Of a DNA stretch of 64,000 bases, positions 43,497 through 64,000 are shown one piece after another (positions within the stretch are counted from its first letter, which is position 1; each line of letters begins with the position of its first letter). The DNA comes from Escherichia coli (GTDB taxonomy: Bacteria > Pseudomonadota > Gammaproteobacteria > Enterobacterales > Enterobacteriaceae): assembly GCF_050920415.1 (NCBI RefSeq), contig NZ_CP169309.1; one strand, written 5' to 3'. The notes under the pieces are model-generated. The model saw nothing but the letters and a program-made list of their open reading frames with translations. It was not told the origin of the DNA and did not search any database. The position numbers and the translations under genes are program-made.

Positions 43497-43506
43497 GAGA
43501 GAACGG

Positions 43507-44197: not shown

Positions 44198-44216
44198 TTA
44201 CGGCTTGAGCAGACCT

Positions 44217-46071: not shown

Positions 46072-46092
46072 CGACTCTTCAATAACTGACAA

Positions 46093-46118
46093 GGCCCGAG
46101 TTATCGGGCCTATTTTTT
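46093..46118. terminator. bidirectional intrinsic terminator between uspE and ynaJ
   Basis: GGCCCGA...CGGGCC hairpin followed by TATTTTTT. Confidence 0.7.
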
Positions 46119-46120
46119 AC

Positions 46121-46378
46121 TTACTGCTCTTCGCCGCCAAGGAAATAAATACCCAACGGGATTGCCAGCAACACAGTAAAGACCAGGCTATAAACAAAAA
46201 TCATCGATGACTGAATCACATACATTGATGTCGTCCACTCAGACAGCGGAATATTGTACTGTTCTATAACGCCGCCGATGGTCGCGCGAGTCACAACCGA
46301 CGCCGCAATAATGAAAACCGCCAACAAACCAAAGAGAAATTTCTTCCCTTTCGCTGACTTCAGTTTCGCCATAATCAT
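46121..46378 (-). CDS. ynaJ: small inner-membrane protein YnaJ
   Basis: 85 aa ORF with two hydrophobic helices. Confidence 0.8.
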   Translation of the reverse strand: MIMAKLKSAKGKKFLFGLLAVFIIAASVVTRATIGGVIEQYNIPLSEWTTSMYVIQSSMIFVYSLVFTVLLAIPLGIYFLGGEEQ

Positions 46379-46621
46379 GATGTAATCCTTGTGCAGACAA
46401 ATTTCTTGTTACCTAAACGTAACAATACCATGACATTTCACCGTTGTCTGCTCTGAAAACCTCACCTCTTAGCTGGATTTACAATCAACGCATTGATTAG
46501 TTAGCTAATGTTGCTACTTCCTTCCCTGACTATTGATGATCTGAATGAATTGTCGCGGTAAAATAGCCCCGCCAGGGGTTTCCGGCATGACGACAATTAT
46601 CTGGAGGAGCCTGATAAAACA

Positions 46622-47653: not shown

Positions 47654-47666
47654 TTCAGACATCACT

Positions 47667-47690
47667 GGCGTTACCCACAAGGGTAACGCC
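47667..47690. terminator. hairpin between convergent ynaI and mppA (putative terminator)
   Basis: GGCGTTACCC-acaa-GGGTAACGCC perfect inverted repeat; weak T-run. Confidence 0.4.
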
Positions 47691-47698
47691 AGTTCACA

Positions 47699-49309
47699 TC
47701 AATGTTTCACAATATACATAGTCCGGCTATACGCCACATCTTCCGGGTTATTAATGGGATAACCTTTCAGCCACGGCTTGATTAATCGTCCATTGGTATA
47801 TTGATAAATTGGTGCAATCGGTGCTTGCTCCATGAGGATTTTTTCTGCCGCATTGTAATCGGCATTACGCGCTTTAACGGTATTTTCCGTCGATGCCTGG
47901 GCCAAAACTTTGTCGTAGGCCGGGTTGTTAAAGCGTGAAATGTTGCCTGAATGCGTTGACGTTAATAATGTCAGGAAGGTGGAGGGTTCATTATAATCCC
48001 CCACCCACGAGGCGCGGATAACATCAAAATTACCTGTATTACGACTATCGATATAGGTTTTCCATTCCTGATTTTGCAGTTTGACATCTACACCAAGGTT
48101 CTTTTTCCACATCGATGCCACAGCAATCGCAATTTTTTGATGGTTTTCTGAAGTATTATACAAAAGCGTCAGCTTCAGCGGTTTTTGCGGACCATAACCG
48201 GCTGCGCTCAACAAAGTTTTTGCCTGCGCATTCAGTTCTTCCTGACTCATTTGTTCAAACGGCGAAGGCTCCGGCGTGAATCCGGCAGTAACATCTGGCG
48301 TAAAATGCCACGCTGGTTTTTCGCCCGTCCCCAACACTTTTTCGGTCATCAGGCGGCGATCTATCGTCATACTTAATGCCAGACGAACGCGCTGATCTGC
48401 CGTCGGCCCTTTTTGCGTGTTAAACGCATAATAATAGGTTCCGAGCTGCGGCGGTGTATAAACCTGCCCCGGAATATCCTTCAACAGCTTCTGATACATA
48501 TTTTTGGGGAAGGATTCGGTGATATCAATATCCCCCGCGAGATAACGCTTAGTGGCTGCGGATTCCTGATTAATTGGCAGGAAGGTCACTTTTTGCAACA
48601 CCGTTTTGGCGTTATCCCAATAATGGGTATTTGGCACCACGACCAGTTTTTCATTGACTACACGCTCTTTAAGAACATAAGCGCCATTGCCGACCAGATT
48701 TCCGGGTTTCGTCCACTCTTTCCCGCTTTCTACGTTAGCTTTTTGCACCGGGAAGAAGGCAAAATTGGCTGTTAAATTCACAAACCACGGCAACGGTTTA
48801 TCAAGCTGGATTTTCAAAGTACGGGCATCAACCGCGGTGACGCCTAGCTGATCAGGCGTAGCTTTACCATCAATAATCGCCTGTGCGTTGTTGATTCCCG
48901 CCAGCGCGGCAAACCAGGCAAACGGCGACAACGTTTTTGGGTCAACCAGACGTTGCCAGCTGTAGACAAAATCCTGTGCCGTTACCGGTGTGCCATCCGC
49001 CCATTTTGCGTTATCGCGCAGGGTGAAAGTCCAGATACGGTTGTCATTACTTTTCCACTGAGTCGCAACGCCGGGGACAATCTCCCCTTTCTCGTTCTGA
49101 TTCACCAGTCCTTCAAAAAGATCGCGAATGACCTGAATCTCTGGCAGACCCACGGCTTTAGCGGGATCCAGCGACGCAGGCTCATCTTTAATATGGCGCA
49201 CCAGCTCCTGCTTCTCTGCCAGTACTGTGCCGCTCGGAACTTCTGCAGCATACGAAAGAGACATTATGCAAAGTGGCAAAAACGATATATAAATCATGAT
49301 TTTATTCAT
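47699..49309 (-). CDS. mppA: periplasmic murein tripeptide-binding protein MppA, with an AT-rich, apparently replaced 5' end
   Basis: OppA-family SBP sequence; start taken at MNKIMIYISFLPLCIMSLSYA/AEV signal peptide (ATG at 49309); the first ~20 codons and upstream DNA are AT-rich, unlike the rest of the gene. Confidence 0.85.
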   Translation of the reverse strand: MNKIMIYISFLPLCIMSLSYAAEVPSGTVLAEKQELVRHIKDEPASLDPAKAVGLPEIQVIRDLFEGLVNQNEKGEIVPGVATQWKSNDNRIWTFTLRDNAKWADGTPVTAQDFVYSWQRLVDPKTLSPFAWFAALAGINNAQAIIDGKATPDQLGVTAVDARTLKIQLDKPLPWFVNLTANFAFFPVQKANVESGKEWTKPGNLVGNGAYVLKERVVNEKLVVVPNTHYWDNAKTVLQKVTFLPINQESAATKRYLAGDIDITESFPKNMYQKLLKDIPGQVYTPPQLGTYYYAFNTQKGPTADQRVRLALSMTIDRRLMTEKVLGTGEKPAWHFTPDVTAGFTPEPSPFEQMSQEELNAQAKTLLSAAGYGPQKPLKLTLLYNTSENHQKIAIAVASMWKKNLGVDVKLQNQEWKTYIDSRNTGNFDVIRASWVGDYNEPSTFLTLLTSTHSGNISRFNNPAYDKVLAQASTENTVKARNADYNAAEKILMEQAPIAPIYQYTNGRLIKPWLKGYPINNPEDVAYSRTMYIVKH

Positions 49310-49352
49310 ATATTTTTTAACCTTAAAATAATATGGTACACACAATGGTACA

Positions 49353-49380
49353 CAAAAAGAAACGAGGCGTTAGCCTCGTT
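49353..49380 (-). terminator. intrinsic terminator downstream of the prophage tail-fibre gene
   Basis: AACGAGGC-gtta-GCCTCGTT hairpin followed on the minus strand by TCTTTTTGTG. Confidence 0.6.
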
Positions 49381-49409
49381 TCGCGGCGATGTTCTTCGCA
49401 CATCACCTC

Positions 49410-51782
49410 TTATTCTTCGCTTCCGGTCAACTGCTTAACAAGCGCAACCAGTTCGCTAACCTGATTTTCAAGATTGGTGATACGTTCATCCATGACAGTA
49501 ATGTTAGCACGTAAGCTGGCGTTTTCTTCTTCCAGTGCTGTAGCTTTCAACATTAAGGATTGTGTAACGTGCATTGTATCGAGCAATAAAGGCGTAGTAT
49601 CAAGCTCTTTCACCTCTATTTCTTTGTTGTTATTATCATAATGTGTTCTTGTTTTTACATATAACGGATCTATTAGTTCGGCTGATTGTGAAATAATGCC
49701 ACGCCGCACTCTTTCTTTTTCATCACCATTGAATACGAATGTTACGAAATCAAGGTTTTCTAAATTGCTCCACGCTTTATCTACGGTAGCGTGCTGCACA
49801 TTATGCTTAAATCTAATATCAGATATTGCATTTTTAGTAACCGTTGAGGTTTCTGTTACGGAATAATTATCCCATTTGGTAAAGTAAATGTTTGAATCAA
49901 ACGGGGCAATTTCAAGTCTTACTCCGTATTTGTTATCACTATCACCAACGCAGTTTAATGAAGTCCTAGCAAAACTAGTGGTATTGTGATGAATTAAACC
50001 GAGACTATACCAAGTCGCATACCCCGCTGAGGATGCTTGCCCTGCACTAAAATTGGAATTAAACGACCAGTTTTCACCTATATTAGTGTAAGGTACAACG
50101 AATGTTGCGCCGTGCGTTGGGATCTCACCCCAACTTAAAAGTTTTTGCGTTGTAGCCCTAAATGATGCTGATTCAAAAAGCCCGCTATCATTTACCGTAA
50201 TTCTCCCCTTGTTCCCTGATGTTTTATTTTCAACTTCAATAACTGCATAGTGGGATTGATCGATATACGCATCACCCCACATCGACACTTCGCATTCTGA
50301 GGCGTCACCGATCTTGTATACGGATTTTACAACACCTGTAGTTGATTTTGTTCCGGTTGATAGCCTTGTTTTGTCGGCGTTAATTACGCTCCAGGATGTA
50401 TTTGCAGCGGTAAAGCCACCAGATGCACGGATCACCCATACACCAACAAAGTTTCGTGTAAGAATTTCATCTGTTGATGCTCCATAAATCGGGCTACACC
50501 GTGACGCATCAAAAGTACATGTATTATAACGGCCTTCCAAAGCGGTTGTACCGCTAGGAATTGCATCACCTACACCGTCAGGAAATACACTGTTATCGGA
50601 GGAAAATGCACCATAAGATGTGCCAATGGCTTGCGCGTAACTCCCACCGGAATAAGTGGTAAAATAACCAGTAATATTTGGCGCGGCTGATTCAAATAGT
50701 TGTCCGTTTGCACTACTAACGCCACCATCACCTCGACCATAAAGCGCTCTGATCGATCCTTCTTGTATACCGTTTTTATCGGGAACGCGGAAAGTTGTTT
50801 CTCCGTCACCCGTGGAATATTTACCGCGTTGGAATTTATCAGCCAGCCATTCAGAATCATCTATAGCGCCCACCATTTGAGCGTAAGCCCACAATTCAGG
50901 CCAATCTGCACGGTTAAGTAATTGCCCGTCCGATGTAACCTCATAAGGCTGAATATAAGCGCGGCTATCGCGTAAGTGGAAATCCCCTACGCCGTAATTC
51001 ATAACACCGTTCATTGTTGGTCCGACTGTACCACTATTGATATAGTTCATTACCCAACGCATTGTTACAGCGTCGTAATCACTTACCGGATCGCCTGCTA
51101 ATGGCGTTGAACCTATTGGGCGAACGTTCAACCAGGCCGCCGCTCGGTCGGCAAGATCGGAAAGGTTATTTTGTATTCTTAGAAATGAATCCGGGTTTAT
51201 GTCGTTTTTGTACCCTTCCGCTATGTTTTTATATTCTTCGGCGTTAGCGGCGCTTTCTGCTGCGTTTACTGCCGCCCCTGTTGCGGTAACAGCCCCTTCT
51301 TCTGCTGTTTGTGCTGCTGCTTCTGCTGCTGCTTTAGATGATTCGGCGTCTGTTTTGTATTGCTGAGTTGTCGCTTTATCTGCGCTTACTTGCGCTGAGT
51401 CCGTGTGAACTTGGTTAACTAGTGCTATCAATCCATCAAGATCAAATTCCTGAAAAAATTCAACTGCGTTTGCAATTTCGGTTTCCTTGCCCTGATAGTA
51501 ACGCAGAGTTTCAGCAACATCTTGCGCTAAACCATCTACAGAAATCGAGTCTGAAAGCAGAATACTGAATTTTGTCCCGGCAGATATTGCAGGGTCGGCC
51601 GCAGGAGTTACTGATAATTCAGTTCCGCTCTTAATTTCGGTGATGGTAAATATCTGCACAGGATCGCTAACTGCAATCAGCGTGCACCCTTCCCGGATGA
51701 GCGAAAGCGGCGCGGTGAAGCTTGTCCCCAAGCCTGTAACAGTGTTACCACTAATAGCTATTGTTCCTGTTGTATAAATCAT
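49410..51782 (-). CDS. phage tail fibre protein with tail-collar domain and C-terminal peptidase-S74-like intramolecular chaperone
   Basis: 790 aa; Stf-like N-terminus; collar-domain motif (DWPELWAYAQ...GDGETTFRVPDKNG); C-terminal SDIRFKHNV motif followed by coiled coil, typical of autoproteolytic chaperone domains. Confidence 0.8.
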   Translation of the reverse strand: MIYTTGTIAISGNTVTGLGTSFTAPLSLIREGCTLIAVSDPVQIFTITEIKSGTELSVTPAADPAISAGTKFSILLSDSISVDGLAQDVAETLRYYQGKETEIANAVEFFQEFDLDGLIALVNQVHTDSAQVSADKATTQQYKTDAESSKAAAEAAAQTAEEGAVTATGAAVNAAESAANAEEYKNIAEGYKNDINPDSFLRIQNNLSDLADRAAAWLNVRPIGSTPLAGDPVSDYDAVTMRWVMNYINSGTVGPTMNGVMNYGVGDFHLRDSRAYIQPYEVTSDGQLLNRADWPELWAYAQMVGAIDDSEWLADKFQRGKYSTGDGETTFRVPDKNGIQEGSIRALYGRGDGGVSSANGQLFESAAPNITGYFTTYSGGSYAQAIGTSYGAFSSDNSVFPDGVGDAIPSGTTALEGRYNTCTFDASRCSPIYGASTDEILTRNFVGVWVIRASGGFTAANTSWSVINADKTRLSTGTKSTTGVVKSVYKIGDASECEVSMWGDAYIDQSHYAVIEVENKTSGNKGRITVNDSGLFESASFRATTQKLLSWGEIPTHGATFVVPYTNIGENWSFNSNFSAGQASSAGYATWYSLGLIHHNTTSFARTSLNCVGDSDNKYGVRLEIAPFDSNIYFTKWDNYSVTETSTVTKNAISDIRFKHNVQHATVDKAWSNLENLDFVTFVFNGDEKERVRRGIISQSAELIDPLYVKTRTHYDNNNKEIEVKELDTTPLLLDTMHVTQSLMLKATALEEENASLRANITVMDERITNLENQVSELVALVKQLTGSEE

Positions 51783-51941
51783 CTCAACAACTCCATAATG
51801 TTAACTTATGTGTCAATTCTACCATTTTGCGATCTGTGTTACATTTCTGTCTTATACAAAATGTATTTGTTGATTTACATCAATGTTGTGAAAATGCGGT
51901 TTGTGGATACTACAACCAACGAAACAACGGAGGGTAAGACA

Positions 51942-52181
51942 ATGAAAGGCTTAAAAAATATCGCTATCGCTGCAATGGTTGCTGGTCTGGTTGGTTGTGC
52001 TGATATGCCGAAACGTGAATGCACGGCAATTTATCAAACTGGCGGTAATGAGTATGCGGTTGCAGTCTTCGGTGTCGCGGATGTTGGTGGTCACAAAATG
52101 GCTAAGGCTGGGTATCCATTTAATTTTCAATGGGTGAGCGTTGACCACTTCAAGAAAACGGATTGCCCGGAATTGAATTAA
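51942..52181 (+). CDS. phage lipoprotein, possible Cor-like superinfection-exclusion protein
   Basis: 79 aa from ATG at 51942 with SD GGAGGG; lipobox LVGC; opposite-strand gene at the distal end of the tail module, where cor sits in N15/phi80-like phages; family assignment is inference. Confidence 0.5.
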   Translation: MKGLKNIAIAAMVAGLVGCADMPKRECTAIYQTGGNEYAVAVFGVADVGGHKMAKAGYPFNFQWVSVDHFKKTDCPELN

Positions 52182-52771
52182 TCATAGGCGTCGGTTTTAA
52201 TGGCGGTGATAGCGTTCCCGTGGTTAATATAGCCAGTTGGTGCATATACGCTACCCGCCTGGATGCCGTAAATTCTAGTTGTGCTTCCGTTGTAATAAGC
52301 CGCCGCATAAATGGATGCACTACCCTGTCCAACGAGCGCCCCTAACAATTGGGGGCAAATAGCATAAGAACCGGATAACGTTTGGTCTATATAAATTCCG
52401 CCGCTTGATCCTGCCGTCCCAACGGTTACAAGGTCTGTTAATATTCTTGATTCATTAGTTAGCACTAGTTCCCCGGAAGCGTTCCAAATAGCCATTCCCC
52501 ACTTCGGCAGCGATGGCGGGAAAATAGTGAAAATATACGCATACCCCGAACCAGCCCCGATTAGTAAAGTTGATGGGCTATTTCTATAAGCTAATACAGC
52601 GGCGGCGGTAGTGCTTTTTACAAATACCATCACGGGCTTCCCGGATGGCACGGCGACGGTTTGATTCGATGATGTTAATGTCACCCGTTCATATAAGCAA
52701 AGCGGCGTTGCTTCCGGTGTAACGAAAATATTCCCGTTACTTAATCTCAAATAAGCTCCGAAGGTTGCCAT
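52178..52771 (-). CDS. phage protein (197 aa) downstream of J, N-terminus MATFG
   Basis: ORF whose stop overlaps the next gene; shares the N-terminal MATFG with the adjacent 103 aa ORF; Gly/Ser/Thr-rich. Confidence 0.6.
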   Translation of the reverse strand: MATFGAYLRLSNGNIFVTPEATPLCLYERVTLTSSNQTVAVPSGKPVMVFVKSTTAAAVLAYRNSPSTLLIGAGSGYAYIFTIFPPSLPKWGMAIWNASGELVLTNESRILTDLVTVGTAGSSGGIYIDQTLSGSYAICPQLLGALVGQGSASIYAAAYYNGSTTRIYGIQAGSVYAPTGYINHGNAITAIKTDAYD

Positions 52772-53082
52772 TAAGCCACCTCCGCAAATATAACAATTTC
52801 ACACTGTGACGCGGGCCATATATTAGCGCCTACCGTATCCCCTGCCGAGGAAATGGAAACAGTACCACCCGAAATAGTGATCTTTCTGCGCGTCGTTGAC
52901 GTTGTGCCATAATCAAGCGTCATCCCATAAGATAATTTGCATCCGGTCGGCACTGTAAAGGTATATGTGCCGGATACCTGCCCGGATGATAAGGAAATAT
53001 AACCAACCACAACGGAAGGTTTAATTCCATAGTTATTAGCATTGCCGCTGGCGTCCCAGGTCGCTACGCCGAAAGTAGCCAT
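52771..53082 (-). CDS. phage protein (103 aa) downstream of J, N-terminus MATFG
   Basis: ORF immediately after J with SD (GGAGG); Gly/Ser/Thr-rich beta-type composition. Confidence 0.6.
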   Translation of the reverse strand: MATFGVATWDASGNANNYGIKPSVVVGYISLSSGQVSGTYTFTVPTGCKLSYGMTLDYGTTSTTRRKITISGGTVSISSAGDTVGANIWPASQCEIVIFAEVA

Positions 53083-53134
53083 AATTACACCTCCTTAATA
53101 AAAAACTGAGGCCGAACAAGTCGGCCCCTTAATT

Positions 53135-56100
53135 CTACCATGATCCGGTAATTCGCCCAATCTGGACGCGCAAAACCCCGTTACCGTCTTTTACCGAAAT
53201 AGTGGTATTAGTTAATTTCATCGCGCCCTCACCACTCACCGCGCCGTAGTTTTCGAATGTCCCGCCTTTATCCAGTTTCCATCCGGTACTGCCGGAAACA
53301 TAGTTATTTGACTGGATGTAAGAACCTATTTTCGCGTTGGTGATTGAGGCGTCTTTTATAAATGCTTCGCGAACATACATAGCGCCGTTTTCAACATAAA
53401 ATGGTGTCGTATATGTGCCGTTGGCGGCTGTCATTAATACGAAGCGGTCAACAAGAAAAATACATTGTGATTGCGTATTTGCGCCATCACCAGTTACCCC
53501 AAGCGATATTCCTGACGCGTATTTCATACCGTTGTTATCAGTAGCGATCTTGAGACTCCAAGTTGCCGACATATCACCATTAATATTGGTAATTGCTGTT
53601 TTGTTTTCCTCAATAAGCACTGATTGCCCATTAATTGATGCGGTTACTTCGCTAATTTGCTGCGCGGTTGCTTTTTCAAGCGTAACCATTGCTTGTTCAA
53701 GGTTTGTGACCTTCCCTTGAATATCATCACTTATTTTTGCTTCAAGCTCTGATAATGCTTTTGCTGTTGCCTCTTTTTCCGTTGCGACAACTTCATCTAT
53801 ACGCGTGATCTCTGCTTTTGATTGTTTCAACTGAGCGGAAAGTGTGCGTCTTGATGTTGTTTGAGCTACGGAATTATTAAGAAGCGCAATGGAAACGTTT
53901 TGCAAGCGGGCGCGAGTTTGTGTTAGTTCGCTATCCTGTTCCGAAAGCTCGACACCTATTTCGTCAATACGACTTTCATGAACCCCTAACCCCTCTTCGT
54001 TATTCTGGACGCGATTAATTAGATCTGATGTGGTATCCTTCAGATCGGTAACATCCCCTTTAAGTGTGCTCGTGTCACTAATCAACCCTTGAAATTGCTC
54101 GCTTTCCATGACTTCTTTCGTCACGAAATCTGTAATTTCGTCGAAGTCCTCCGTAGGCTTCCCGGATGCCTCAATAAAATCTGACACACCGAACGCGTTG
54201 CGGGTGCGAATGTACACATAATACATGTGGCCTGTGCTCATGCCGCCGAACGTCCATTGATAACCACGTCCGGTATACTGCGCTGACGTGGTTATGGTTG
54301 CCGGATCCGTAATCCTGTTTTCTCCGGCGTAATAAAATTCATATGCCGTATCAGTGGTGAGTGTTGTTTTGCTTATCGGGTAGACAGTAGCCTGAAATAC
54401 ACCAGGCACCCAATTTACACCGACAGGCGCGGATGGCGCTCCAATCACCAGATCGACGATGCTTTCTGCACCCTTCATGCCAGTGTCATTTCTGCCGCGA
54501 ACACCTAACGTGTATGAACCAGCATCAATGCCATAAAAATCATAACTGTATTTCGTGGTTTCATAGCTTTTAACCACCGCACCATCTGCATTGTATATGC
54601 GGATCTCGAATGTCATGCGATGAGTGGTAGTCTGTGTCTCCCACGTTGCGCGGCATTGAACTGTTTCCGATCCAATGTTTACTACCTTCAGATTTTCGAT
54701 GTTCGGCACACGGAAGTGATTAAGCGTGTCGCTGTTGATTTCGAAGATTGCGCCTTCATCGACTACGGCTTGTTTGTTAGGGTCGTGCTGCGCGGCTTCG
54801 ATAGTGTATACGCTGTTATTTTGTGTTTCTGCTACGCTGGTGATCCTACACAAAACTGGTTTTGCTGCGTTAGTTGATACAGCAAAAACAGTGCCATTTC
54901 GAATCCATGTTGGGGCCGCAGCAAGGGTGATATTGTTTCCGTTAACTCCGGTGATCTGGTGTTTTTTAAATTTGCCATCGCTATCAAGAAGGCTTATTGT
55001 GTCGCCAGCGGTCACATATTCAGAATCAACCTTATCTACAGTGATCACACGTCCATTGTTAGAGACAATACGACCGCCTAAGCGAGCGCCAGCACGGTTA
55101 TTGTCGAGTATCTCGATGATATCACCTGGCGTAAAGTGAATCGCGTCACGGGCCATTTTAAACGTGAATTTTGAAGGCTCGCGCTTCGCTGTTTCTATCA
55201 GCCATTTACCCGCCCGGTGCGCTTGCCCGCGTGATGTACACCCGAAAGCCTCCAGCGTGGTTTCGTTGTAGCCGTCACGGGCGATTAGTTCATCATCTGC
55301 GACATACTCTTTTGATTGTTCCCAGCCGTTTTCCGGATCAGTCCATGACACAATTACCGCGTTGTAGCATTCTGATCGCGCGATACTTGAACGGGTAAAT
55401 GCACCATCCACGACGTTTGCGTTAGTGATGGTTGCGATTGGGTCTTGTGGTGCATCAATCATTATAGTAAGGCGCTGACCATCCCATAACGCTATACCAC
55501 GGAACATCCCGGCGATGTTGTCCAGTAGGTCGCGGGCGCTCATTTGCTCTGTGATGTACGCGTTTAGCGTGACGCGCGGCTCTAAGCCACCATAGCCATC
55601 ATCAACCAACTGATCGCAGTATTGAGAGAGCGTATACAAAGCACCATCATCAACATCGATATAACCAGCCTGTCGAGCAAGGCCAAAACGCTCGTTTTTA
55701 ACCAAGTAGCGGAATATCCACGCCGGGTTATTTGTGTATGCCTTTTTAAGTCCGCCAAGCCATAAACCGGAATAATTTCGTTTTTCCGGGTCGTAGTTAT
55801 CCGGTACATCGACAATCAGCCCACGCAGATGATAAGTGCGTGTAGGTGTATCGGAGTACTGGTCATGGTCAATTACCGCGCCAGCTACAGCAGTGTGAGG
55901 ATAAGACAAGTTATCGTCGATGATTTCGCTATAACTGTTCCAGCGGGTATCGTTCTGTAATAGGTCGCTTACACTATCAGCCGTCACGCGGCGCACGCGA
56001 ATATCAAATGGCTTTTCATCCGGCGCATCAATGATATGAGACTCCAGATATTCACCGCTAATCTTACCCGGACCGATTTGTACGGCCTTAACCGCCGACC

Positions 56101-56554
56101 AGGTGGAAGACGAGGACGGTTTAACATCGATTGCCATAATGACAGACGTTTCTTTCTGGTTTGATTGGTTATCGCTTTCCACCAGTGAATCCACGCCAAT
56201 ATTTAGCCGGACGCGCGTCACGTTCGGATCTGATACCGTCCTGACCAGTGGCGTATCATGCTTTACCTGTGCGTTAACCATCACCGTTGATTCAATGGCG
56301 TTAAAGCCGTTGATCGGTGACTGGTCGGCAGTACCCGGACGCCAGGCGACACTAACGCCTGGAATGCTGGTATTACCTACCGCATCCGTAACAGGAGTGT
56401 CATTAAGCATTACGCAGTTTAACGGCGCGGCAGTATTGACAGGCCCATAAATCGGCCCTTCGCTCAATATATCAAGCACGCGATAAAACTGCTTATGGAA
56501 CAAGTTATCGTTTATTAATGTTGGTGTTTTTGCTTTACCACCGCCGCCGCCCAT
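53135..56554 (-). CDS. phage tail tip / host-specificity protein J
   Basis: 1139 aa (lambda J is 1132 aa); position after I; fibronectin-III-like central region. Confidence 0.9.
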   Translation of the reverse strand: MGGGGGKAKTPTLINDNLFHKQFYRVLDILSEGPIYGPVNTAAPLNCVMLNDTPVTDAVGNTSIPGVSVAWRPGTADQSPINGFNAIESTVMVNAQVKHDTPLVRTVSDPNVTRVRLNIGVDSLVESDNQSNQKETSVIMAIDVKPSSSSTWSAVKAVQIGPGKISGEYLESHIIDAPDEKPFDIRVRRVTADSVSDLLQNDTRWNSYSEIIDDNLSYPHTAVAGAVIDHDQYSDTPTRTYHLRGLIVDVPDNYDPEKRNYSGLWLGGLKKAYTNNPAWIFRYLVKNERFGLARQAGYIDVDDGALYTLSQYCDQLVDDGYGGLEPRVTLNAYITEQMSARDLLDNIAGMFRGIALWDGQRLTIMIDAPQDPIATITNANVVDGAFTRSSIARSECYNAVIVSWTDPENGWEQSKEYVADDELIARDGYNETTLEAFGCTSRGQAHRAGKWLIETAKREPSKFTFKMARDAIHFTPGDIIEILDNNRAGARLGGRIVSNNGRVITVDKVDSEYVTAGDTISLLDSDGKFKKHQITGVNGNNITLAAAPTWIRNGTVFAVSTNAAKPVLCRITSVAETQNNSVYTIEAAQHDPNKQAVVDEGAIFEINSDTLNHFRVPNIENLKVVNIGSETVQCRATWETQTTTHRMTFEIRIYNADGAVVKSYETTKYSYDFYGIDAGSYTLGVRGRNDTGMKGAESIVDLVIGAPSAPVGVNWVPGVFQATVYPISKTTLTTDTAYEFYYAGENRITDPATITTSAQYTGRGYQWTFGGMSTGHMYYVYIRTRNAFGVSDFIEASGKPTEDFDEITDFVTKEVMESEQFQGLISDTSTLKGDVTDLKDTTSDLINRVQNNEEGLGVHESRIDEIGVELSEQDSELTQTRARLQNVSIALLNNSVAQTTSRRTLSAQLKQSKAEITRIDEVVATEKEATAKALSELEAKISDDIQGKVTNLEQAMVTLEKATAQQISEVTASINGQSVLIEENKTAITNINGDMSATWSLKIATDNNGMKYASGISLGVTGDGANTQSQCIFLVDRFVLMTAANGTYTTPFYVENGAMYVREAFIKDASITNAKIGSYIQSNNYVSGSTGWKLDKGGTFENYGAVSGEGAMKLTNTTISVKDGNGVLRVQIGRITGSW

Positions 56555-56566
56555 AATAACCCCCTA

Positions 56567-57097
56567 TTAACTTACAACGTCCAGCGCGTCTTTATTGTTG
56601 GTTGTATCAATACCCAGGGATCCAACATTCGAACCTATTTTCATTTCACCCAATAAAATTGGAACGGGACGGCCCTGGCCTACTCTGTTTTCTACACTGG
56701 TGTAACTGTTATTTGTGATGCTATTATCCTGCGCACTTTCCGCTGATGTTTTTACTTTCATGTTTCGGGCCATGAAAATAGAAAACGCGATGCTTGCAAC
56801 GGAAAGGCCGATTAACAGCCAGCCAACCACACCGATCCCTGCGATACCACCTTCTACCACTGGCGCAACAATAATTGTTGTTCCGTCAGGGTATTCACTA
56901 TTAACGGCAGCAGGTGCGGTTTTTTCGTCGTAATCTTTCCCGGCAATGCGTAAGCGTAATGGCGTACTTAAAAACGCTCGCTTAAATTCCTGATTCTGTG
57001 CGGTCAATAAGCGAAGCCCTTGCGCGGGCGTATTAACGTTTAAACACACTTTGCTGTAATATCTTCGAAGATTGCCCGTAAATCTAAATTTGAGCAT
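56567..57097 (-). CDS. phage tail assembly protein I
   Basis: 176 aa ORF between K and J with central hydrophobic segment; 5' end overlaps K. Confidence 0.75.
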   Translation of the reverse strand: MLKFRFTGNLRRYYSKVCLNVNTPAQGLRLLTAQNQEFKRAFLSTPLRLRIAGKDYDEKTAPAAVNSEYPDGTTIIVAPVVEGGIAGIGVVGWLLIGLSVASIAFSIFMARNMKVKTSAESAQDNSITNNSYTSVENRVGQGRPVPILLGEMKIGSNVGSLGIDTTNNKDALDVVS

Positions 57098-57771
57098 TTG
57101 TCAGATCTCCATATTGAATGCGTTTGTCGAACATACGCTGGCCGCATTTGCTCGCGGCGGCTTAATAGTCCGGCATGGTCATGATGCAAAACCGTGTTAT
57201 CACCCAGGTAAAGCATTGCGTGACATGGATCCGCGCCTTTAAACGGCTGCCGGATGATCACGTCACCAGGCTGGATGTTTTGCGTGTCAATCTGAAAAAA
57301 ACCGTTTAGCGGCAAGTTTTTTAAATACAGGTTTTCACCGCGTAGCCACCACCCATCAAGGCGATCGAAGTCCGGCAGGTCTACGCCGCAAAGGTGATAG
57401 GCATCCCGAAAAAGCGTGTAACAATCAGTTGTCCCGTGTACAAATTTACGTCCTAGCAAGTGCGCCACCGGACGGAACTTCCTGATCTTGCCGCCTGAAT
57501 ATAAAAACCACGGCAGCCCGGAAATAACATGCTGTTGTCGATCCCGTGCCGACAATACCGGAATATCATCAACGTGGGAGTGAAAAACGGCGGTTATAAC
57601 GCCCAATTCGTCAGCTTTGATGTAATCGTCCGGCAAAATTTTAAAGCTGTTATGCGGCGTCTCAGACACGTTCACGCACGGGTAAAAATATTCATTGTCT
57701 ATCACCAGTCCGCAAACTTCCTCAAACGGATGTGCGGCGGCATAACGAAACATTTTGTCTTTCAGCGTCAT
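57040..57771 (-). CDS. phage tail assembly protein K (JAB/MPN plus NlpC/P60-like)
   Basis: Start taken at MTLKDKMFRY 2 nt after L stop; JAMM-like motif (FHSHVDD...S..D); lambda K homologue by position. Confidence 0.8.
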   Translation of the reverse strand: MTLKDKMFRYAAAHPFEEVCGLVIDNEYFYPCVNVSETPHNSFKILPDDYIKADELGVITAVFHSHVDDIPVLSARDRQQHVISGLPWFLYSGGKIRKFRPVAHLLGRKFVHGTTDCYTLFRDAYHLCGVDLPDFDRLDGWWLRGENLYLKNLPLNGFFQIDTQNIQPGDVIIRQPFKGADPCHAMLYLGDNTVLHHDHAGLLSRREQMRPAYVRQTHSIWRSDKCSNLDLRAIFEDITAKCV

Positions 57772-57773
57772 AA

Positions 57774-58511
57774 TCAACCTACCTTGCTTGATCCTGGAAA
57801 ACATGAGATCGGCAATGGATTTGGACGCGGGAAACGCAAGCGACAACCGCTTAGGCGGTGGCTGCACCTGTCTAATGTTGGATCGTTTGTCGGCTCGTCT
57901 TTGTCTGTAGCAACTGGCCCGCCAGAGTACGCACAGCCATCACCTCTATACTGCCACTGGCAAACGTCAGCAAGAATGGTGCGGCCTGGGATCACCGCCT
58001 TATCTGCATCAATTGGCGTTGACAACTCATATTGCACCTGATCCGCTGTTTCTTCACTCATGGCCTCTATAACGTAAAAGGACACCGCCTCAATAGATGG
58101 ATCAGCGTCAGGATTGCCATTTGGGAAGTTAACAGCGTCAAGGTATTTCACTTCCACCTGGCGGCGCGTAACCTTCATGCCTCGAAGGTCGTTATAGTCG
58201 GTATTCATCCCGGTAATGAGTCCGCCAATGTTTGCTACAGCCATTTGAGGGCGAGAATAAACTCCTTCGTTTTTCATTTCGAAGCCAGTAGCCTCGATTG
58301 GATAGCTGTTATAAGCCACGCCCTTCCAGATGACCGGACCGTAATAACCATTCGCGCCGGAATGGAAGCGGACAACCTCGCCACCAAGGGGAGTAAGGTC
58401 CAATTCGAACAAGTCAATGATTGCGCCGACTCCCGCATCGACGGAATCAATAATCATCTCTGTAGGTATATTGCGCATTTTATCACCTTGTTGTTTTGTG
58501 ATCTGCATCAC
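57774..58511 (-). CDS. phage minor tail protein L
   Basis: Recognisable similarity to lambda L (e.g. RRQVEVKYLDAVNFPNGN, QWQYRGDGCAYSG, C-terminal Cys cluster); exact start uncertain. Confidence 0.85.
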   Translation of the reverse strand: MMQITKQQGDKMRNIPTEMIIDSVDAGVGAIIDLFELDLTPLGGEVVRFHSGANGYYGPVIWKGVAYNSYPIEATGFEMKNEGVYSRPQMAVANIGGLITGMNTDYNDLRGMKVTRRQVEVKYLDAVNFPNGNPDADPSIEAVSFYVIEAMSEETADQVQYELSTPIDADKAVIPGRTILADVCQWQYRGDGCAYSGGPVATDKDEPTNDPTLDRCSHRLSGCRLRFPRPNPLPISCFPGSSKVG

Positions 58512-58616
58512 ACCGTGAATGCCAAAATGGATTGATAGCGTGATTTACAATATGTATATTTTACTCAAACGAACGGTAGTAAACAAAATGGCACAGTTTG
58601 GAACAGGATAGGACAC

Positions 58617-58775
58617 TATGAGATCCGCAAAATACGCAGAAAAAGTTTTCGTTGAAGTGAAAGGCGACATGAAAAAATTTATGGATGTTCTTATCAAAGA
58701 GATGGGAAAACCGTTCCATATAGCCGAACGTCAGTATTACGCTTGCAAGGCTAATAGCTACAACAGATACGCATG
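58617..58775 (+). CDS. moron ORF C1 (52 aa), unknown function
   Basis: First ORF of a compact plus-strand cassette inserted between tail genes L and M. Confidence 0.4.
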
Positions 58776-58798
58776 ACAATAAACACAAAGGTAACACT

Positions 58799-58891
58799 AT
58801 GCAAAAATATCGTCTTGATGTGTGGATGGCTGGAAATAAAGATTGGGAAGGTTTCGGATTATTTGACAGCCGCGAACTGGCTAACGACTAA
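58799..58891 (+). CDS. moron ORF C2 (30 aa), unknown function
   Basis: Short ORF with AAGG SD in the same cassette. Confidence 0.3.
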   Translation: MQKYRLDVWMAGNKDWEGFGLFDSRELAND

Positions 58892-58972
58892 GGGGAAAAA
58901 CTTGTTAACTTCTTTGGACGGGCCAGGGAGTTTTAAGTAACCCCGGTACAGATAGAAAATAAGGTGGAAGAG

Positions 58973-59152
58973 ATGAAATACGATATTGATAACGACGCTT
59001 GCTTTAAACAAAACTTTGCGGATTCTATGGATCAGTCTTGCCCTGAAATACACGCACACGGTTTCCCGGCAGATAATCCAGACATGAAACGCGAATACGA
59101 AAAAGCGGCGAAAGATTTCTGCATCGACAATCTGGGCGCATTCGATAGATAA
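58973..59152 (+). CDS. moron ORF C3 (59 aa, acidic, Cys/His-containing), unknown function
   Basis: ATG preceded by AAGGTGG; track ORF 58964..59152. Confidence 0.5.
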   Translation: MKYDIDNDACFKQNFADSMDQSCPEIHAHGFPADNPDMKREYEKAAKDFCIDNLGAFDR

Positions 59153-59161
59153 GGCGGCAAT

Positions 59162-59410
59162 ATGGCGAGGCGAAAACATAGCGATTATATGTACACGCTG
59201 AAGCAGGCCGCCCGCCTTATCGGTTATCATGAACACGAATTTATTGATTTGCTGATTGAGCGCGGGATTTTATACCAGGTCTGTTTAACGCTGTACCCGA
59301 AAGCGAAATACTTGCAGGAAAAGTTATTCATCATCATGACGGATGAAAACCAGGTTAATCACTCATTCGTCACTGCCAAAGGCGTTAATTATCTGCGCGA
59401 TAACTTATAG
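59162..59410 (+). CDS. moron ORF C4 (82 aa), putative HTH-containing protein
   Basis: ATG preceded by AAGGCGG; segment TLKQAARLIGYHEHEFIDLLIERGIL resembles a helix-turn-helix. Confidence 0.5.
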   Translation: MARRKHSDYMYTLKQAARLIGYHEHEFIDLLIERGILYQVCLTLYPKAKYLQEKLFIIMTDENQVNHSFVTAKGVNYLRDNL

Positions 59411-59420
59411 GTGACAGATT

Positions 59421-59537
59421 ATGAAAATAGAAGTTTTGGCGCTAATAGTAATGGGATTGATAGTATTTGGTGTTCATGCTGTAGATCTGGACTGGAAAAC
59501 GATAGCAGAAAATATAGCGTTAATGGAAATGGAATAA
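59421..59537 (+). CDS. moron ORF C5 (38 aa), small hydrophobic membrane peptide
   Basis: ATG preceded by AGGTGA; single predicted TM helix (LALIVMGLIVFGV); followed directly by a terminator. Confidence 0.4.
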   Translation: MKIEVLALIVMGLIVFGVHAVDLDWKTIAENIALMEME

Positions 59538-59541
59538 TAAT

Positions 59542-59560
59542 AACCCCGCTTCGCGCGGGG
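59542..59560. terminator. intrinsic terminator closing moron cassette C (possibly bidirectional)
   Basis: CCCCGC-ttcg-GCGGGG hairpin followed by TCGTGTTTAT. Confidence 0.65.
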
Positions 59561-59566
59561 TCGTGT

Positions 59567-59752
59567 TTATACGCCATCAAGTAAAAATAAAACTTCCTTG
59601 CCTTCTCTTGATCTGCATCCTACATAACCGTCACCCATGTCATGAAGATACCAGGTCTCACCATTATCAGCTTTTACAGTAAGATCGTTGATTTCATAGT
59701 CGTCAAACAATGTAAAAGCGCCCGTGCGGTCCACTACACAAATAGCATACAT
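59567..59752 (-). CDS. small phage protein (61 aa) between M and L, unknown function
   Basis: ORF starting MYAICVVDRTG with SD GGAGG; start lies 14 nt 3' of the M stop on the same strand. Confidence 0.45.
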   Translation of the reverse strand: MYAICVVDRTGAFTLFDDYEINDLTVKADNGETWYLHDMGDGYVGCRSREGKEVLFLLDGV

Positions 59753-59765
59753 ATTGACACCTCCA

Positions 59766-60119
59766 TTAATTGACAACTTGCTCAAAAGTTGCGTTTAGCG
59801 TGTACAAAGACCCGTCTTTAGTCATGCTCCATCGGCGGCAAACAAAAAGCCTTTGCACGTTATCCATCGACGGCGACCAGTAAAAAGCCTCGACCGCGCC
59901 GCGCGCCCTCAAGAATGCTTCCGCCTGGATTGCTACGTTTTCACCATCACCACATCCGGCGCTACTGCCTTTAAATACCAGGGTGTAGCTATCAAGCAAT
60001 GGATTGATACCTTTTACCTGTCTTTGCTCATAACCATCGCCCAGCTTAACAACGGATACGTCCGGCTCCCTGGTCACGCTGTAGCTTCGTTGTGGCGTCC
60101 ATCTGAACACTTCCGGCAT
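59766..60119 (-). CDS. phage minor tail protein M
   Basis: 117 aa; similarity to lambda M including FRW near the N-terminus, GDGY.QR, and identical C-terminal FEQVVN. Confidence 0.88.
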   Translation of the reverse strand: MPEVFRWTPQRSYSVTREPDVSVVKLGDGYEQRQVKGINPLLDSYTLVFKGSSAGCGDGENVAIQAEAFLRARGAVEAFYWSPSMDNVQRLFVCRRWSMTKDGSLYTLNATFEQVVN

Positions 60120-60308
60120 AAAACCCCCATAAGTTACATTTTGTATATATCTTTACGCGCTTCTACGCGAAAAATAAGATCTTCATCACAATGATTATAG
60201 CTAGTTTACAAAATGGCTTCACATAGCACACAACAAGATGTATATAAAAAGCAAGAAGAAAAGCAGTACCAACGAAGGAGGCCCAAAAATGAAACGCTAT
60301 GAGTAGTA

Positions 60309-60443
60309 ATGCTAAACAACGCATTCGAACAAGTGGAAATAGCAATCGTTAAGGGTTTCGACGACGCATTTAAATACGGTCAATTCATGATTAATGCAAA
60401 AGAAGATGAATACCGTGATTTCTTCCTGAAGGCTCTTAATTAA
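60309..60443 (+). CDS. moron ORF B1 (44 aa), unknown function
   Basis: ATG 2 nt after the stop of a 5-codon mini-ORF (MKRYE) that has an AGGAGG SD, suggesting translational coupling. Confidence 0.35.
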   Translation: MLNNAFEQVEIAIVKGFDDAFKYGQFMINAKEDEYRDFFLKALN

Positions 60444-60462
60444 GAATAATCGGGGGTGAGCT

Positions 60463-60717
60463 ATGAAACTGGTAGCGATTGACAAAAACCTGAAAGTACA
60501 GAAAAACGCACAGGACCGGATTATCAAGAAAGGTAAGGAACTGCTTAAAGCATTTTTGAAGAAAGAGGCGCGCCCCAAAAAGTTACGCGATGGTTATGGC
60601 TTTAAATTCGATATCAATCATGACTGGCGGCTGTTCAGCGAAGACCTCAAAGTCTGGTTAATAATCGATCACCTGGAATATAACAGGCACTGCGGGGTTA
60701 AAGGGGCGCATAAGTGA
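60463..60717 (+). CDS. moron ORF B2 (84 aa), candidate RelE/ParE-superfamily (HigB/Gp49-like) toxin
   Basis: ATG with SD GGGGGTGAG; basic N-terminal helices and C-terminal RDGYGFKFDINHDWRLFSEDLKVWLIIDHLEY pattern resembling the RelE/HigB beta-sheet core; assignment by pattern recognition only. Confidence 0.5.
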   Translation: MKLVAIDKNLKVQKNAQDRIIKKGKELLKAFLKKEARPKKLRDGYGFKFDINHDWRLFSEDLKVWLIIDHLEYNRHCGVKGAHK

Positions 60718-60725
60718 GGCGGGAT

Positions 60726-60818
60726 ATGGAGGACGATAAATTCACCTGGCGGGAGATCTGGAATATTTGGTTGGTGATGTTTTCTCGCAGCTATATAGCC
60801 AGAAACGGAAGATTGTAA
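60726..60818 (+). CDS. moron ORF B3 (30 aa), unknown function
   Basis: Short ORF with SD (GAGGCGG) abutting B2. Confidence 0.3.
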   Translation: MEDDKFTWREIWNIWLVMFSRSYIARNGRL

Positions 60819-60836
60819 TTTGCGGAGGAAAATAAA

Positions 60837-61013
60837 ATGAAAAACCCGGCAAATAAAAGCAATGTAAAACGTATAGCCTGGATCGTGAAATGGATGGATA
60901 GTAAAGGAGACACATATACTGAACCATTTTTCAAACATACTGATGCAGTATTTGCAAGAAGCGTAAGAGGCGGGAAAATTGAAAGAGGATATACAAGTTT
61001 TGAGAATAACTAA
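60837..61013 (+). CDS. moron ORF B4 (58 aa), unknown function
   Basis: ATG with GGAGG SD; followed by a strong terminator. Confidence 0.45.
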   Translation: MKNPANKSNVKRIAWIVKWMDSKGDTYTEPFFKHTDAVFARSVRGGKIERGYTSFENN

Positions 61014-61020
61014 AATATAA

Positions 61021-61050
61021 CCCCGGCATTGTACCGGGGTTTTGTTTATT
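61021..61050. terminator. intrinsic terminator closing moron cassette B, overlapping the 3' end of the tape-measure gene
   Basis: CCCCGG-cattgta-CCGGGG followed by TTTTGTTTATTT. Confidence 0.8.
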
Positions 61051-63385: not shown

Positions 63386-63536
63386 GATTTAACCTCATGC
63401 AAAATGTGATCTATGCATCTATTTTATACAAAATGTCTTTATTTTAACGATACCGTTTTGTATAGATGATGTAGGGAAAGATAGAAGAGATGCAGGAAGG
63501 ACGGATGTCCCGGAGGAAGTGAAAGAGGATAAGGAA

Positions 63537-63620
63537 ATGAGAAACGTAAACTACCGTCCCAACGAATATGAACGCTATGCGGACCTTATCGAAGAAATGT
63601 TAAAAGCACTTAAAAAATAA
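63537..63620 (+). CDS. moron ORF A1 (27 aa), unknown function
   Basis: Short ORF with purine-rich SD upstream of the secreted-protein gene. Confidence 0.25.
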   Translation: MRNVNYRPNEYERYADLIEEMLKALKK

Positions 63621-63687
63621 ACAATATGCGTGTATAACTAAGTTAAAGGAAGCATTTAGCAAATCAGAATAATTACAGGGGTTGATT

Positions 63688-64000
63688 ATGAAACGGTTAG
63701 CAAAAATGGTACTTGCTGTGATTGCTGCACTGGCATTTAACGCGAACGCTAACGAGGCCATAAACATTAACTGTGAAGAAGTGGCAAACCATGTAGCCGC
63801 ATATCACGACATGATCAAAAAAGAACCAGCCGCACCCACAATTCTTTTTAAGGCAATTGATAAAAATTTTGAAGGGAAACCAGTTTGTGCTCGTTGGTTT
63901 AATTATGGCCTTGTAAACGAGGCTGCTGTAGGCGTAGTCTTTGAAAACAACAGCGAAATAAAAAACAGGATAGCTAACGAGTGTAAAGCAAATAAAGTTG
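63688..64000 (+). CDS. moron ORF A2, secreted Cys-containing protein (partial, runs off window end)
   Basis: ATG at 63688 with SD (AGGGG); cleavable signal peptide MKRLAKMVLAVIAALAFNANA; no stop before position 64000. Confidence 0.55.
   Translation, partial: MKRLAKMVLAVIAALAFNANANEAININCEEVANHVAAYHDMIKKEPAAPTILFKAIDKNFEGKPVCARWFNYGLVNEAAVGVVFENNSEIKNRIANECKANKV

Follow-up and report, generated by a model that had tools for sequence, protein, structure and literature searches.

Why does mppA begin, beside the last gene of a prophage, with an AT-rich leader that ordinary E. coli chromosomes lack? The question was raised by a stretch of 64,000 nucleotides from Escherichia coli contig NZ_CP169309.1 (henceforth the window, meaning this whole stretch). 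An initial annotation, made from the sequence alone, had proposed that a phage integrated into the 5' end of mppA and supplied a replacement start, yielding a hybrid signal peptide. The features that define the locus are as follows:

47699..49309, minus strand: hybrid mppA of 536 codons and a stop codon, from the open reading frame list; codons 1-16 are phage-derived and the remainder chromosomal
49262..49309, minus strand: phage start codon and signal-peptide n- and h-regions, MNKIMIYISFLPLCIM, found in attP of free phage contigs
49410..51782, minus strand: tail-fibre gene, last of the prophage, 790 amino acids with an S74 chaperone-type C-terminus, from the open reading frame list
49262..64000, minus strand: tail module of the prophage, its right-hand 14.7 kb, continuing past the window end, assigned by similarity and gene order

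The break point in mppA and the adjoining prophage

The mppA gene runs on the minus strand from an ATG at 49309-49307 to a stop at 47699-47701, and its product begins MNKIMIYISFLPLCIMSLSYA/AEVP..., unlike the mppA start of K-12 and BW25113, which translates to MKHSVSVTCCALLVSSISLSYA, as the initial annotation had it. In a megablast search of 5,426 complete E. coli genomes, homology to ordinary mppA ended at 49261-49264 in all but two genomes, and alignment placed the break (...CATAATG/TCTCTTTCGTATGCT) at 49261/49262, within the signal-peptide codons, in 5,416 of the 5,418 matching genomes. The 5' region is therefore not identical to that of K-12, and nothing corresponding to the leader segment (49262..49309) occurs in 5,416 other E. 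coli genomes. The suspected AT-richness of the first codons and the DNA upstream of them was confirmed, since G+C makes up 24% of the phage-derived 97 nt, as against 48% in the mppA body and 49% in the K-12 leader that was displaced. The empty site is represented by the closest match to the window, the prophage-free chromosome MFDS1022581 (99.9% over 19 kb), which has an ordinary mppA 5' end with the K-12-type start. Thus, mppA is a phage-host hybrid gene in the window and not a damaged or odd allele.

The neighboring prophage was placed by its tail genes. The tail-fibre stop codon lies 100 nt and the end of the terminator T-run 44 nt from the mppA ATG, in keeping with the short distances first noted, and relatives of the tail-fibre gene are annotated as tail fibre or Peptidase_S74. 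The tail module matches only mEp021, mEp010, mEp013, mEp044, mEp515, mEp554 and MagusPhagus, with identities to these mEp021-group phages of 80-86% across roughly 80% of the 14.7 kb, and across 56-84% of the query when 53100-64000 was used. The gene order is that of the prophage in strain GF66.2, and the junction is the same as that in LSU61, with 91% identity. Judged by these sequence comparisons, the DNA upstream of mppA is the attR of an mEp021-like ("mEpimmI") prophage. According to the main text of a paper on this group, its members carry an immunity group I repressor and use Nus-dependent, N-like (Gp17) antitermination (for the present prophage, the immunity and early regions fall beyond the window), and those prophages with a type III integrase integrate at the mppA initiation region, LSU61 being the sole example (Front Microbiol 2025, PMC11893012). 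That main text makes no mention of a phage-borne start codon or signal peptide, of an attP mini-ORF, or of an intact target gene. The insertion site is thus already published; the built-in repair of mppA, going by the same text, appears not to have been described before.

Attachment sites and a phage-borne mini-ORF

49254..49261, minus strand: crossover core TCTCTTTC, 8 bp, the block identical in attB, attP, attL and attR
49245..49253, minus strand: GT and ATGCTGC (candidate half-site B'), flanking the core on the chromosomal side, where attP has TA and ATGCTAC
49263..49269, minus strand: GCATAAT, a candidate core-type half-site on the phage side that is in register with the attB sequence GCAGCAT
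49333..49354, minus strand: pair of direct TGTGTACCAT repeats, period 12 nt (two copies of ATGGTACACA in the initial annotation), candidate P-arm arm-type integrase sites

Because the other end of the prophage lies beyond the window, the att core was defined from relatives, by comparing attB of K-12, attL of GF66.2 and LSU61, attR of the window and attP of a UViG. A search of public assemblies for the window's own hybrid MppA, as a route to that other end, returned no record of it. The two complete E. coli genomes GF66.2 and LSU61 share the junction of the window and harbor prophages of ~54 kb, at the far end of which we found the displaced 66-nt mppA start with its native upstream region, together with a tyrosine integrase gene. 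The attL of both reads ...GTCAGCAGCATT-TCTCTTTC-TAATGCTACATACC..., with the integrase gene following 160 nt on, and L013, L014 and L032 carry the same attL. The far end and the shared 8-bp core fix the prophage boundary to within 8 bp and, along with the break and the empty site, bear out the proposed integration into the 5' end of mppA. The core encodes Ser-Leu-Ser (only the first two bases of the last codon) in the c-region of the signal peptide, and 5 of the 7 bp that follow it are identical as well. Around it, attB forms an 8/9 inverted repeat (CAGCAGCAT-N11-ATGCTGCAG), in which ATGCTGC is the putative half-site B', while GCATAAT on the phage side may be the matching core-type half-site. 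The leader bases are also constrained as integrase core-type sites.

In three unintegrated phage contigs, attP is contiguous, in the order tail fibre, terminator, repeats, mini-ORF, repeats and int. The mini-ORF comprises 27 codons (MNKIMIYISFLPLCIMSLSNATYRAQA and a stop; seen in L011, L015 and L016) and contains the core. The replacement start that had been credited to the phage is hence present beside an integrase gene in phage DNA that is not integrated. Among all relatives with this att arm, integrase identity to the UViG enzyme is 88-100% (L013 and L014 form the 88%-identity lineage), and no isolated phage in the phage collection has the mppA att type.

The tandem repeat reported earlier is indeed present (49333-49342 and 49345-49354), and its sequence, left unexplained at the time, fits arm-type integrase sites. 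The 8-mer GTGTACCA has just two exact copies in the whole window with both strands scanned, a number near chance expectation, yet these copies lie 12 nt apart in one orientation. All copies point the same way; the P arm has two, and the P' arm, where the same motif pair sits directly upstream of int, has two to three. This arm layout is common to mEp021, mEp010 and MagusPhagus, whose cores differ, and the integrase of the relatives has an N-terminal Arm-DNA-bind_3 domain (PF13356). We infer that the TGTGTACCAT repeats are binding sites for the arm domain of the integrase.

Our main reading, to which we give a probability of about 85%, is that 49254-49382 is the attR of an mEpimmI prophage, that integration at the core swaps the mppA start for the leader of a phage mini-ORF while leaving the frame intact, and that the repeats are integrase arm sites. 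A P4-type tyrosine integrase ("type III") would recombine at the core, which falls in signal-peptide codons 17-19 of mppA. In the unintegrated phage, the attP mini-ORF reads ATG, leader, core and then SNATYRAQA and a stop. Recombination would trade the segments on either side of the core, with the mini-ORF tail going out and the mppA body coming in, and the phage ATG and hydrophobic leader would be joined to the host codons for ...SLSYA/AEVP and the rest of mppA. The host promoter and the first 16 mppA codons would in turn be moved ~54 kb off, to attL, ahead of the integrase gene. The outcome would be a full-length MppA precursor whose leader is new but signal-peptide-like; neither the predicted cleavage site nor the mature protein would change. 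In the window, phage codons 1-16 are in frame with the host codons, so the hybrid signal peptide of the initial annotation stands, and the 536-residue product is annotated by PGAP as an intact MppA in both complete lysogens.

The phage-supplied leader and possible expression of the hybrid gene

By simple rules applied to the sequence only, the n, h and c regions of the hybrid leader are signal-like. A Lys occupies position 3, and the hydrophobic core reaches a 10-residue Kyte-Doolittle maximum of 2.0-2.8, versus 2.55 for the native leader. The six leader alleles retain the ATG and the frame in every case, with no stop codon and no frameshift. They differ by 13 distinct changes, 9 of which fall at third codon positions and 7 of which are synonymous against 17.8% expected (P = 0.0035, on the basis of 13 changes in six related alleles and without a phylogenetic or transition/transversion model). 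When the 97-nt arm was subjected to 20,000 dinucleotide shuffles, an in-frame ATG followed by an open leader of 15-35 codons arose in 16.6%, and a signal-peptide-like leader, by thresholds set after the fact, in only 1.8%. The hybrid leader is probably translated and may export MppA.

The allele sample stays at six, since wider scans for attP or attR alleles yielded no more. Two exact-pattern scans of IMG/VR returned only one contig, which a peptide-pattern scan combined with the integrase returned again, one of two JGI metagenome scans gave nothing and the other a single attL, and none was found among 100,044 species-representative genomes. We also considered the leader as a diverged copy of the mppA 5' end itself and dropped this idea, the similarity being marginal (global alignment P of about 0.02) and due in part to the shared integrase half-site. 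Likewise, LPLC in the leader was rejected as a lipoprotein signal, as it departs from the generally known lipobox rule.

Three features bear on transcription and translation of the hybrid gene:

49354..49382, minus strand: intrinsic terminator of the tail-fibre (late) transcript, with a 10-bp stem, a 4-nt loop and five T
49328..49355, minus strand: TTGTGT-16-TATTAT (8/12), the sequence most like a promoter on the mppA strand, overlapping the arm repeats
49321..49324, minus strand: Shine-Dalgarno-like AAGG, with a long spacing of 11 nt to the ATG

Of the 10 pairs in the terminator stem (49382-49359), 6 are G-C, the surrounding 61-nt stretch folds at -21.1 kcal/mol (z = -2.9), and this stretch is common to 34 E. 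coli genomes with mEp021-group prophages. Between the terminator and the mppA ATG, no sigma-70-like site reached the scan threshold; the best (8/12) scores below it and is present in all six alleles. A promoter-like site on the plus strand (49305-49332, 9/12), antisense to mppA, was set aside as a probable chance match in AT-rich DNA. AAGG or GAGG is kept in all six alleles, and four of the five others also have a GAG nearer the ATG. With its AAGG 11 nt from the ATG and this GAG missing, the window allele could express mppA at a low level or not at all. That mppA expression depends on phage sequence or on read-through, as initially suggested, is a prediction from the geometry of the junction; in the lysogen, mppA may be transcribed from a weak phage-arm promoter or by leakage through the terminator. 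MppA feeds murein tripeptide into peptidoglycan recycling, and given this role any effect on the host is likely modest.

It is conceivable that the junction is as described and that mppA is nonetheless functionally silenced in lysogens, the intact frame having no consequence for the host. Such silencing would accord with the separation of mppA from its own promoter, its position behind a strong and conserved terminator, the lack of a promoter-like site at threshold on its strand and the weak ribosome-binding site of the window allele, as well as with the general knowledge that mppA is not essential and with other integrase types of this phage group leaving their targets as annotated pseudogenes. 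However, the third-position bias and the ATG and frame kept in 6/6 alleles speak for translation of the leader in some state, and at torS a phage-arm promoter of HK022, too weak for consensus scans, was demonstrated by experiment to replace the host promoter (PMC6814406). We consider silencing unlikely, though a serious contender. A different purpose, served in the unintegrated phage, could also have preserved the mini-ORF, either as a leader ORF upstream of int or as a small exported peptide, with rescue of mppA as a by-product. Its P'-side codons (SNATYRAQA and the stop) are never joined to mppA, and yet between two integrase lineages they show three synonymous changes and one conservative change, with the non-coding DNA beyond more diverged; the mini-ORF is also codirectional with int, which is located ~140 nt downstream, and no terminator is predicted in the gap. 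As support, however, four changes do not suffice, the leader has exactly the features of a Sec signal peptide, and the placement of the core at the h-/c-region boundary, which leaves mature MppA untouched, would be difficult to account for if selection did not act in the lysogen. We hold this purpose doubtful, somewhat more so than silencing.

The reading of the AT-rich 5' end as a natural mppA allele, with the true prophage boundary farther upstream at the terminator, we regard as scarcely credible. Only the absence of attL from the window speaks for it, whereas phage contigs without mppA have the leader and the integrase gene on one continuous stretch, all prophage-free E. coli genomes searched lack the leader, the displaced native start sits at the other prophage end, and the near-isogenic empty site has an ordinary 5' end. 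The exchange of mppA starts by integration, our main reading, might extend to a reciprocal swap of signals, in which the 5' half of the mini-ORF and any promoter ahead of it, which in the unintegrated phage would ordinarily run into int, would serve mppA, the host mppA promoter and first codons would serve int, and selection for this dual use would maintain the mini-ORF. There is no predicted terminator between the host mppA promoter and int at attL. This extension is speculative and, in our estimate, quite improbable; if true, integrase supply in the lysogen would track host regulation of mppA, and MppA supply would track a phage signal.

Comparison with known integration systems

Reconstitution of a target gene by a phage-borne gene end is classical, with phage 21 and e14 at icd and many phages at tRNA 3' ends (the subject of Campbell's reviews). 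As in those cases, attP here carries a substitute for the displaced part, and the gene of the lysogen is intact. By contrast, the classical cases involve 3' ends and a recognizable diverged copy, while at mppA it is the 5' end that is exchanged, translation start and export signal included. Because its similarity to the displaced DNA is at most marginal, the mppA leader substitute looks like a functional analogue rather than a clear duplicate. The locus adds a clean example of a phage that appears to repair the 5' end of its target gene with a start codon and export signal, and it contrasts with sister phages, since in the single type II and the single type Ib lysogen examined the targets (abgT, dgcM) carry pseudogene annotations.

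In its architecture, as read from sequence, the att site resembles those of the lambda and P4 type, with a short identical core between inverted half-sites that match imperfectly, arms that both bear direct repeats, and a PF13356 integrase. It differs in that the candidate arm motif is common to integrase types with different cores, which agrees with the main-text description of the mEpimmI integrases as conserved in the N-terminal DNA-binding region and variable in the catalytic region (PMC11893012). The prophage itself is like the type III prophage of LSU61 in that paper, being of the same group by its tail module and having the same junction; unlike the single example given there, our sample has attP in three forms and dozens of draft contigs in addition to the window and two complete genomes.

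The closest parallel for gene control is the HK022 prophage, which replaces the torS promoter with a phage promoter that was mapped experimentally (Carey et al., eLife 2019, PMC6814406). At both loci, the host gene is cut from its native promoter and phage att-arm sequence takes its place. HK022, however, leaves the coding sequence untouched, whereas at mppA the start codon and 16 codons are also replaced and the promoter is only a weak predicted site. The mppA junction offers a small test case of whether prophages rewire the control of host genes, as HK022 does at torS.

The mppA junction and the empty site

The initial annotation placed a prophage-chromosome junction inside the 5' end of mppA. 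A megablast search with window 48900-49700 covered 5,426 complete genomes of E. coli, found mppA in 5,418 and located this break: the match ends at window 49261-49264 in all but two of the mppA-bearing genomes. In the alignment with K-12 (BW25113), the sequences part at ...CATAATG/TCTCTTTCGTATGCTGCAG in the window versus ...CAGCATT/TCTCTTTCGTATGCTGCAG in K-12 (slash, break point), and the K-12 5' region differs from that of the window. The K-12 leader translates as MKHSVSVTCCALLVSSISLSYA, in agreement with the K-12 MppA N-terminus given in the annotation. Over the chromosomal portion (window 30000-49261), identity to E. coli MFDS1022581 is 99.9%; that strain has no prophage at mppA and an ordinary mppA start, and provides the empty site against a near-isogenic background. 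In MFDS1022581 (L010 595-3118), pgrR and ycjY are missing upstream of mppA, mpaA is the next gene, and mppA is annotated as frameshifted.

The mppA start, tail-fibre stop, terminator and repeat described earlier were each found in place, and G+C content is 24% in the 97 nt from the terminator stem to the break point versus 48% in the mppA body.

Features at the mppA junction in the window
Stop 47699-47701, ATG 49309-49307, minus strand: mppA, 536-residue product starting MNKIMIYISFLPLCIMSLSYA/AEVPSGT...
49324-49321, minus strand: Shine-Dalgarno-like AAGG upstream of the mppA ATG
49354-49345 and 49342-49333, minus strand: two direct TGTGTACCAT repeats, read on the plus strand in the initial annotation as ATGGTACACA x2
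Stem 49382-49359, then five T, minus strand: intrinsic terminator (61-nt stretch around the stem, -21.1 kcal/mol, z = -2.9)
49410-51782, minus strand: tail-fibre gene, 790 residues, its stop codon upstream of the terminator

The T-run behind the stem (window 49354-49358; lysogen loci L002, L018 and L024) is 5 to 7 T long in lysogens whose leader alleles are otherwise identical.

The far prophage end and attP

The tail-fibre/mppA junction of the window also occurs in GF66.2 (chicken meat, 94% identity) and O157:H7 LSU61 (deer, 91%), both with a prophage of about 54 kb between mppA and pgrR, and these relatives supplied the other prophage end and the att core. At their attL, the native mppA upstream region is followed by the displaced 66-nt mppA start (a truncated pseudogene according to PGAP), by the junction, which reads ...GTCAGCAGCATT-TCTCTTTC-TAATGCTACATACCGCG..., and, 160 nt past it and in the same direction, by a tyrosine integrase gene of 406 residues. 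An IS1 lies between pgrR and the displaced start in GF66.2 (L003 34813-35510) and is absent there from LSU61. Comparison of attB, attL and attR gives an identical core of 8 bp, TCTCTTTC (window 49261-49254), after which come 7 imperfect bp, host GTATGCT versus phage TAATGCT.

This comparison predicted the form of attP, and such a site was then found uninterrupted in an IMG/VR phage contig (L011, 54.5 kb) and in two Logan contigs (L015 and L016). It runs from the tail-fibre end through the terminator, two arm repeats, a mini-ORF, about 120 nt and two or three further repeats to the integrase ATG. The mini-ORF (ATG AAT AAA ... ATA ATG TCT CTT TCT AAT GCT ACA TAC CGC GCA CAA GCG TAA) comprises 27 codons, MNKIMIYISFLPLCIMSLSNATYRAQA*, of which codons 17-19 contain the crossover core. 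Since attP is contiguous in these contigs, the phage itself carries the mini-ORF, and the proposal that it supplies a replacement start and a hybrid signal peptide is borne out. Upon integration, everything 3' of the core is exchanged between mini-ORF and mppA; the hybrid MppA retains the host SLSYA/AEVP cleavage region, and the mature protein is wholly host-encoded.

The attB core lies inside an 8/9 inverted repeat, CAGCAGCAT-N11-ATGCTGCAG, whose half-sites have the attP counterparts GCATAAT and GTAGCAT (complementary strand); together these are plausible core-type integrase sites. A second integrase lineage (L013 and L014, 2780-3000; 88% identity) has the same mppA core and a clearly diverged P' arm, and its mini-ORF tail, SNASYRAQA*, shows three synonymous changes and one conservative change.

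The replacement leader and possible expression of the hybrid gene

The phage leader carries Lys at position 3, contains a hydrophobic stretch of 13 residues and keeps the native c-region; its 10-residue Kyte-Doolittle maximum is 2.0-2.8 across alleles versus 2.55 for the native leader. Shuffling dinucleotides of the arm 20,000 times gave an in-frame, open, signal-like leader in 1.8% of cases, under thresholds set post hoc. Six distinct alleles (window, GF66.2, LSU61, L011, L015 and L016) contain 13 site/base differences in codons 2-16, nine of them at third positions and seven synonymous versus 17.8% expected (binomial P = 0.0035), in a small sample of related alleles whose bases double as integrase sites. 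The ATG is invariant, stop codons and frameshifts are absent from all six alleles, and there are six replacements (S/L, L/F, P/S, P/Q, I/V and M/I). Constraint on a DNA site does not predict the third-position bias. Similarity to the displaced host leader is marginal at most (P about 0.02), and the phage leader looks like a functional stand-in, not an obvious diverged copy.

Annotation of the target genes points the same way for mppA, which is intact in both type III lysogens (GF66.2 and LSU61). By contrast, abgT is an annotated pseudogene ('missing C-terminus') in the type II lysogen UMNK88 (L029 2664-4106), as is dgcM ('frameshifted') in the type Ib lysogen MIN12 (L031 6382-7577). From these single examples of other types, repair of the target gene looks specific to the type that inserts in mppA. 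In the window, dgcM (35888-37180) and abgT (41964-43496) are uninterrupted. Just upstream of dgcM, window 35807-35819 matches the mEp021 attP exactly over 13 nt (ACAAAAAGCAAAA), a match that may represent the type I core or be due to chance.

The native mppA promoter region remains at attL; in K-12 the upstream scan gave one promoter site, TTTGCA-18-AATAAT, which stops 37 nt short of the ATG. The late-operon terminator at attR stands 44 nt before the new ATG, and the best promoter-like match after it, TTGTGT-16-TATTAT (8/12), overlaps the arm repeats and is present in all six alleles, below the scan threshold. AAGG lies 11 nt from the ATG in the window, whose allele lacks the extra GAG seen nearer the ATG in four of the other five. 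Given the terminator position, the sub-threshold promoter and the AAGG spacing, mppA in the lysogen may be weakly transcribed from the phage arm, reached by read-through only in lytic growth, or silent. A genuine replacement promoter can reside in a phage att arm, as HK022 at torS demonstrates (PMC6814406). No predicted terminator separates int from the native mppA promoter at attL, so that the host promoter may read into the integrase gene; this possible read-through is the ground for a speculative 'reciprocal swap' of expression signals between attL and attR. Another promoter-like site, TTCATA-16-AATAAT (9/12; window 49305-49332, plus strand; L011 8806-8779, minus strand), is present in the window and the attP contig and is directed from the first leader codons to the arm repeats, away from mppA; in AT-rich DNA, this match may be due to chance.

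Relation to the mEp021-like phages

The prophage occupies 14.7 kb of the window, where it encodes a tail module (tape measure, minor tail proteins, J and tail fibre); this stretch matches only the mEp021 group (mEp021, 010, 013, 044, 515 and 554) and MagusPhagus, at 80-86% identity. Tail-fibre genes beside attP or attR (window 49410-51782; L011 5232-8699; L015 150-2675) encode 790, 814, 841 or 1155 aa; the 790- and 1155-aa proteins have common N- and C-terminal ends, the latter of the S74 chaperone type, and differ in the middle. The unannotated record 'Campylobacter phage C13' (MG065692.1) is 85% identical over 690 nt to the tail-fibre gene (window ~50390-51080), an odd host label for coliphage-like sequence. 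Between the tail genes, an opposite-strand ORF with a lipoprotein-like signal (...MVAGLVGCADM...; window 51798-52181, plus strand) occupies the position of the mEp021 'putative lipoprotein'; such phage lipoproteins are linked to superinfection exclusion in the text of PMC11893012.

Of the 5,426 complete E. coli genomes searched, 2 have the window type of attR. GF66.2-type hybrid MppA occurs in 35 blocks of a public assembly index (24 contigs read) and LSU61-type on 14 contigs, with a Peptidase_S74 tail fibre upstream of hybrid mppA at every place shown. The leader pattern was found once in IMG/VR and in none of 100,044 species-representative genomes. Among 5.8 billion proteins, the integrase forms only two clusters at at least 88% identity, and its next relatives stand at 52%.

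Counting both strands, the 64-kb window contains exactly two copies of the GTGTACCA motif, a number near chance expectation, but they lie 12 nt apart in one orientation; in attP a second tandem set, orientation unchanged, lies immediately upstream of the integrase start. mEp021, mEp010 and MagusPhagus have a like layout, with TGTGTACCAAAT-type pairs directly after the terminator and directly before int, but differ from the mppA type in their cores and host genes. The type III integrase combines Arm-DNA-bind_3 (PF13356) with a catalytic domain, and mEpimmI integrases are described as conserved in the N-terminal DNA-binding region and variable in the catalytic region (text of PMC11893012). Because of this layout, domain and conservation, the direct repeat in the window is read as the P-arm pair of candidate arm-type integrase sites.

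The text of Front Microbiol 2025 (PMC11893012) defines the mEpimmI group with four integrase types, type I disrupting ydaM and type III, exemplified by LSU61, inserting at the initiation region of mppA; the mppA integration site is thus already in the literature. Rebuilding of the target gene receives no mention found in its main text. Judged from sequence, the new detail would be a previously unreported phage-encoded start and signal peptide that rebuild the target gene, under apparent coding selection. The window junction is a further, well-resolved member of a published prophage and att-site type.
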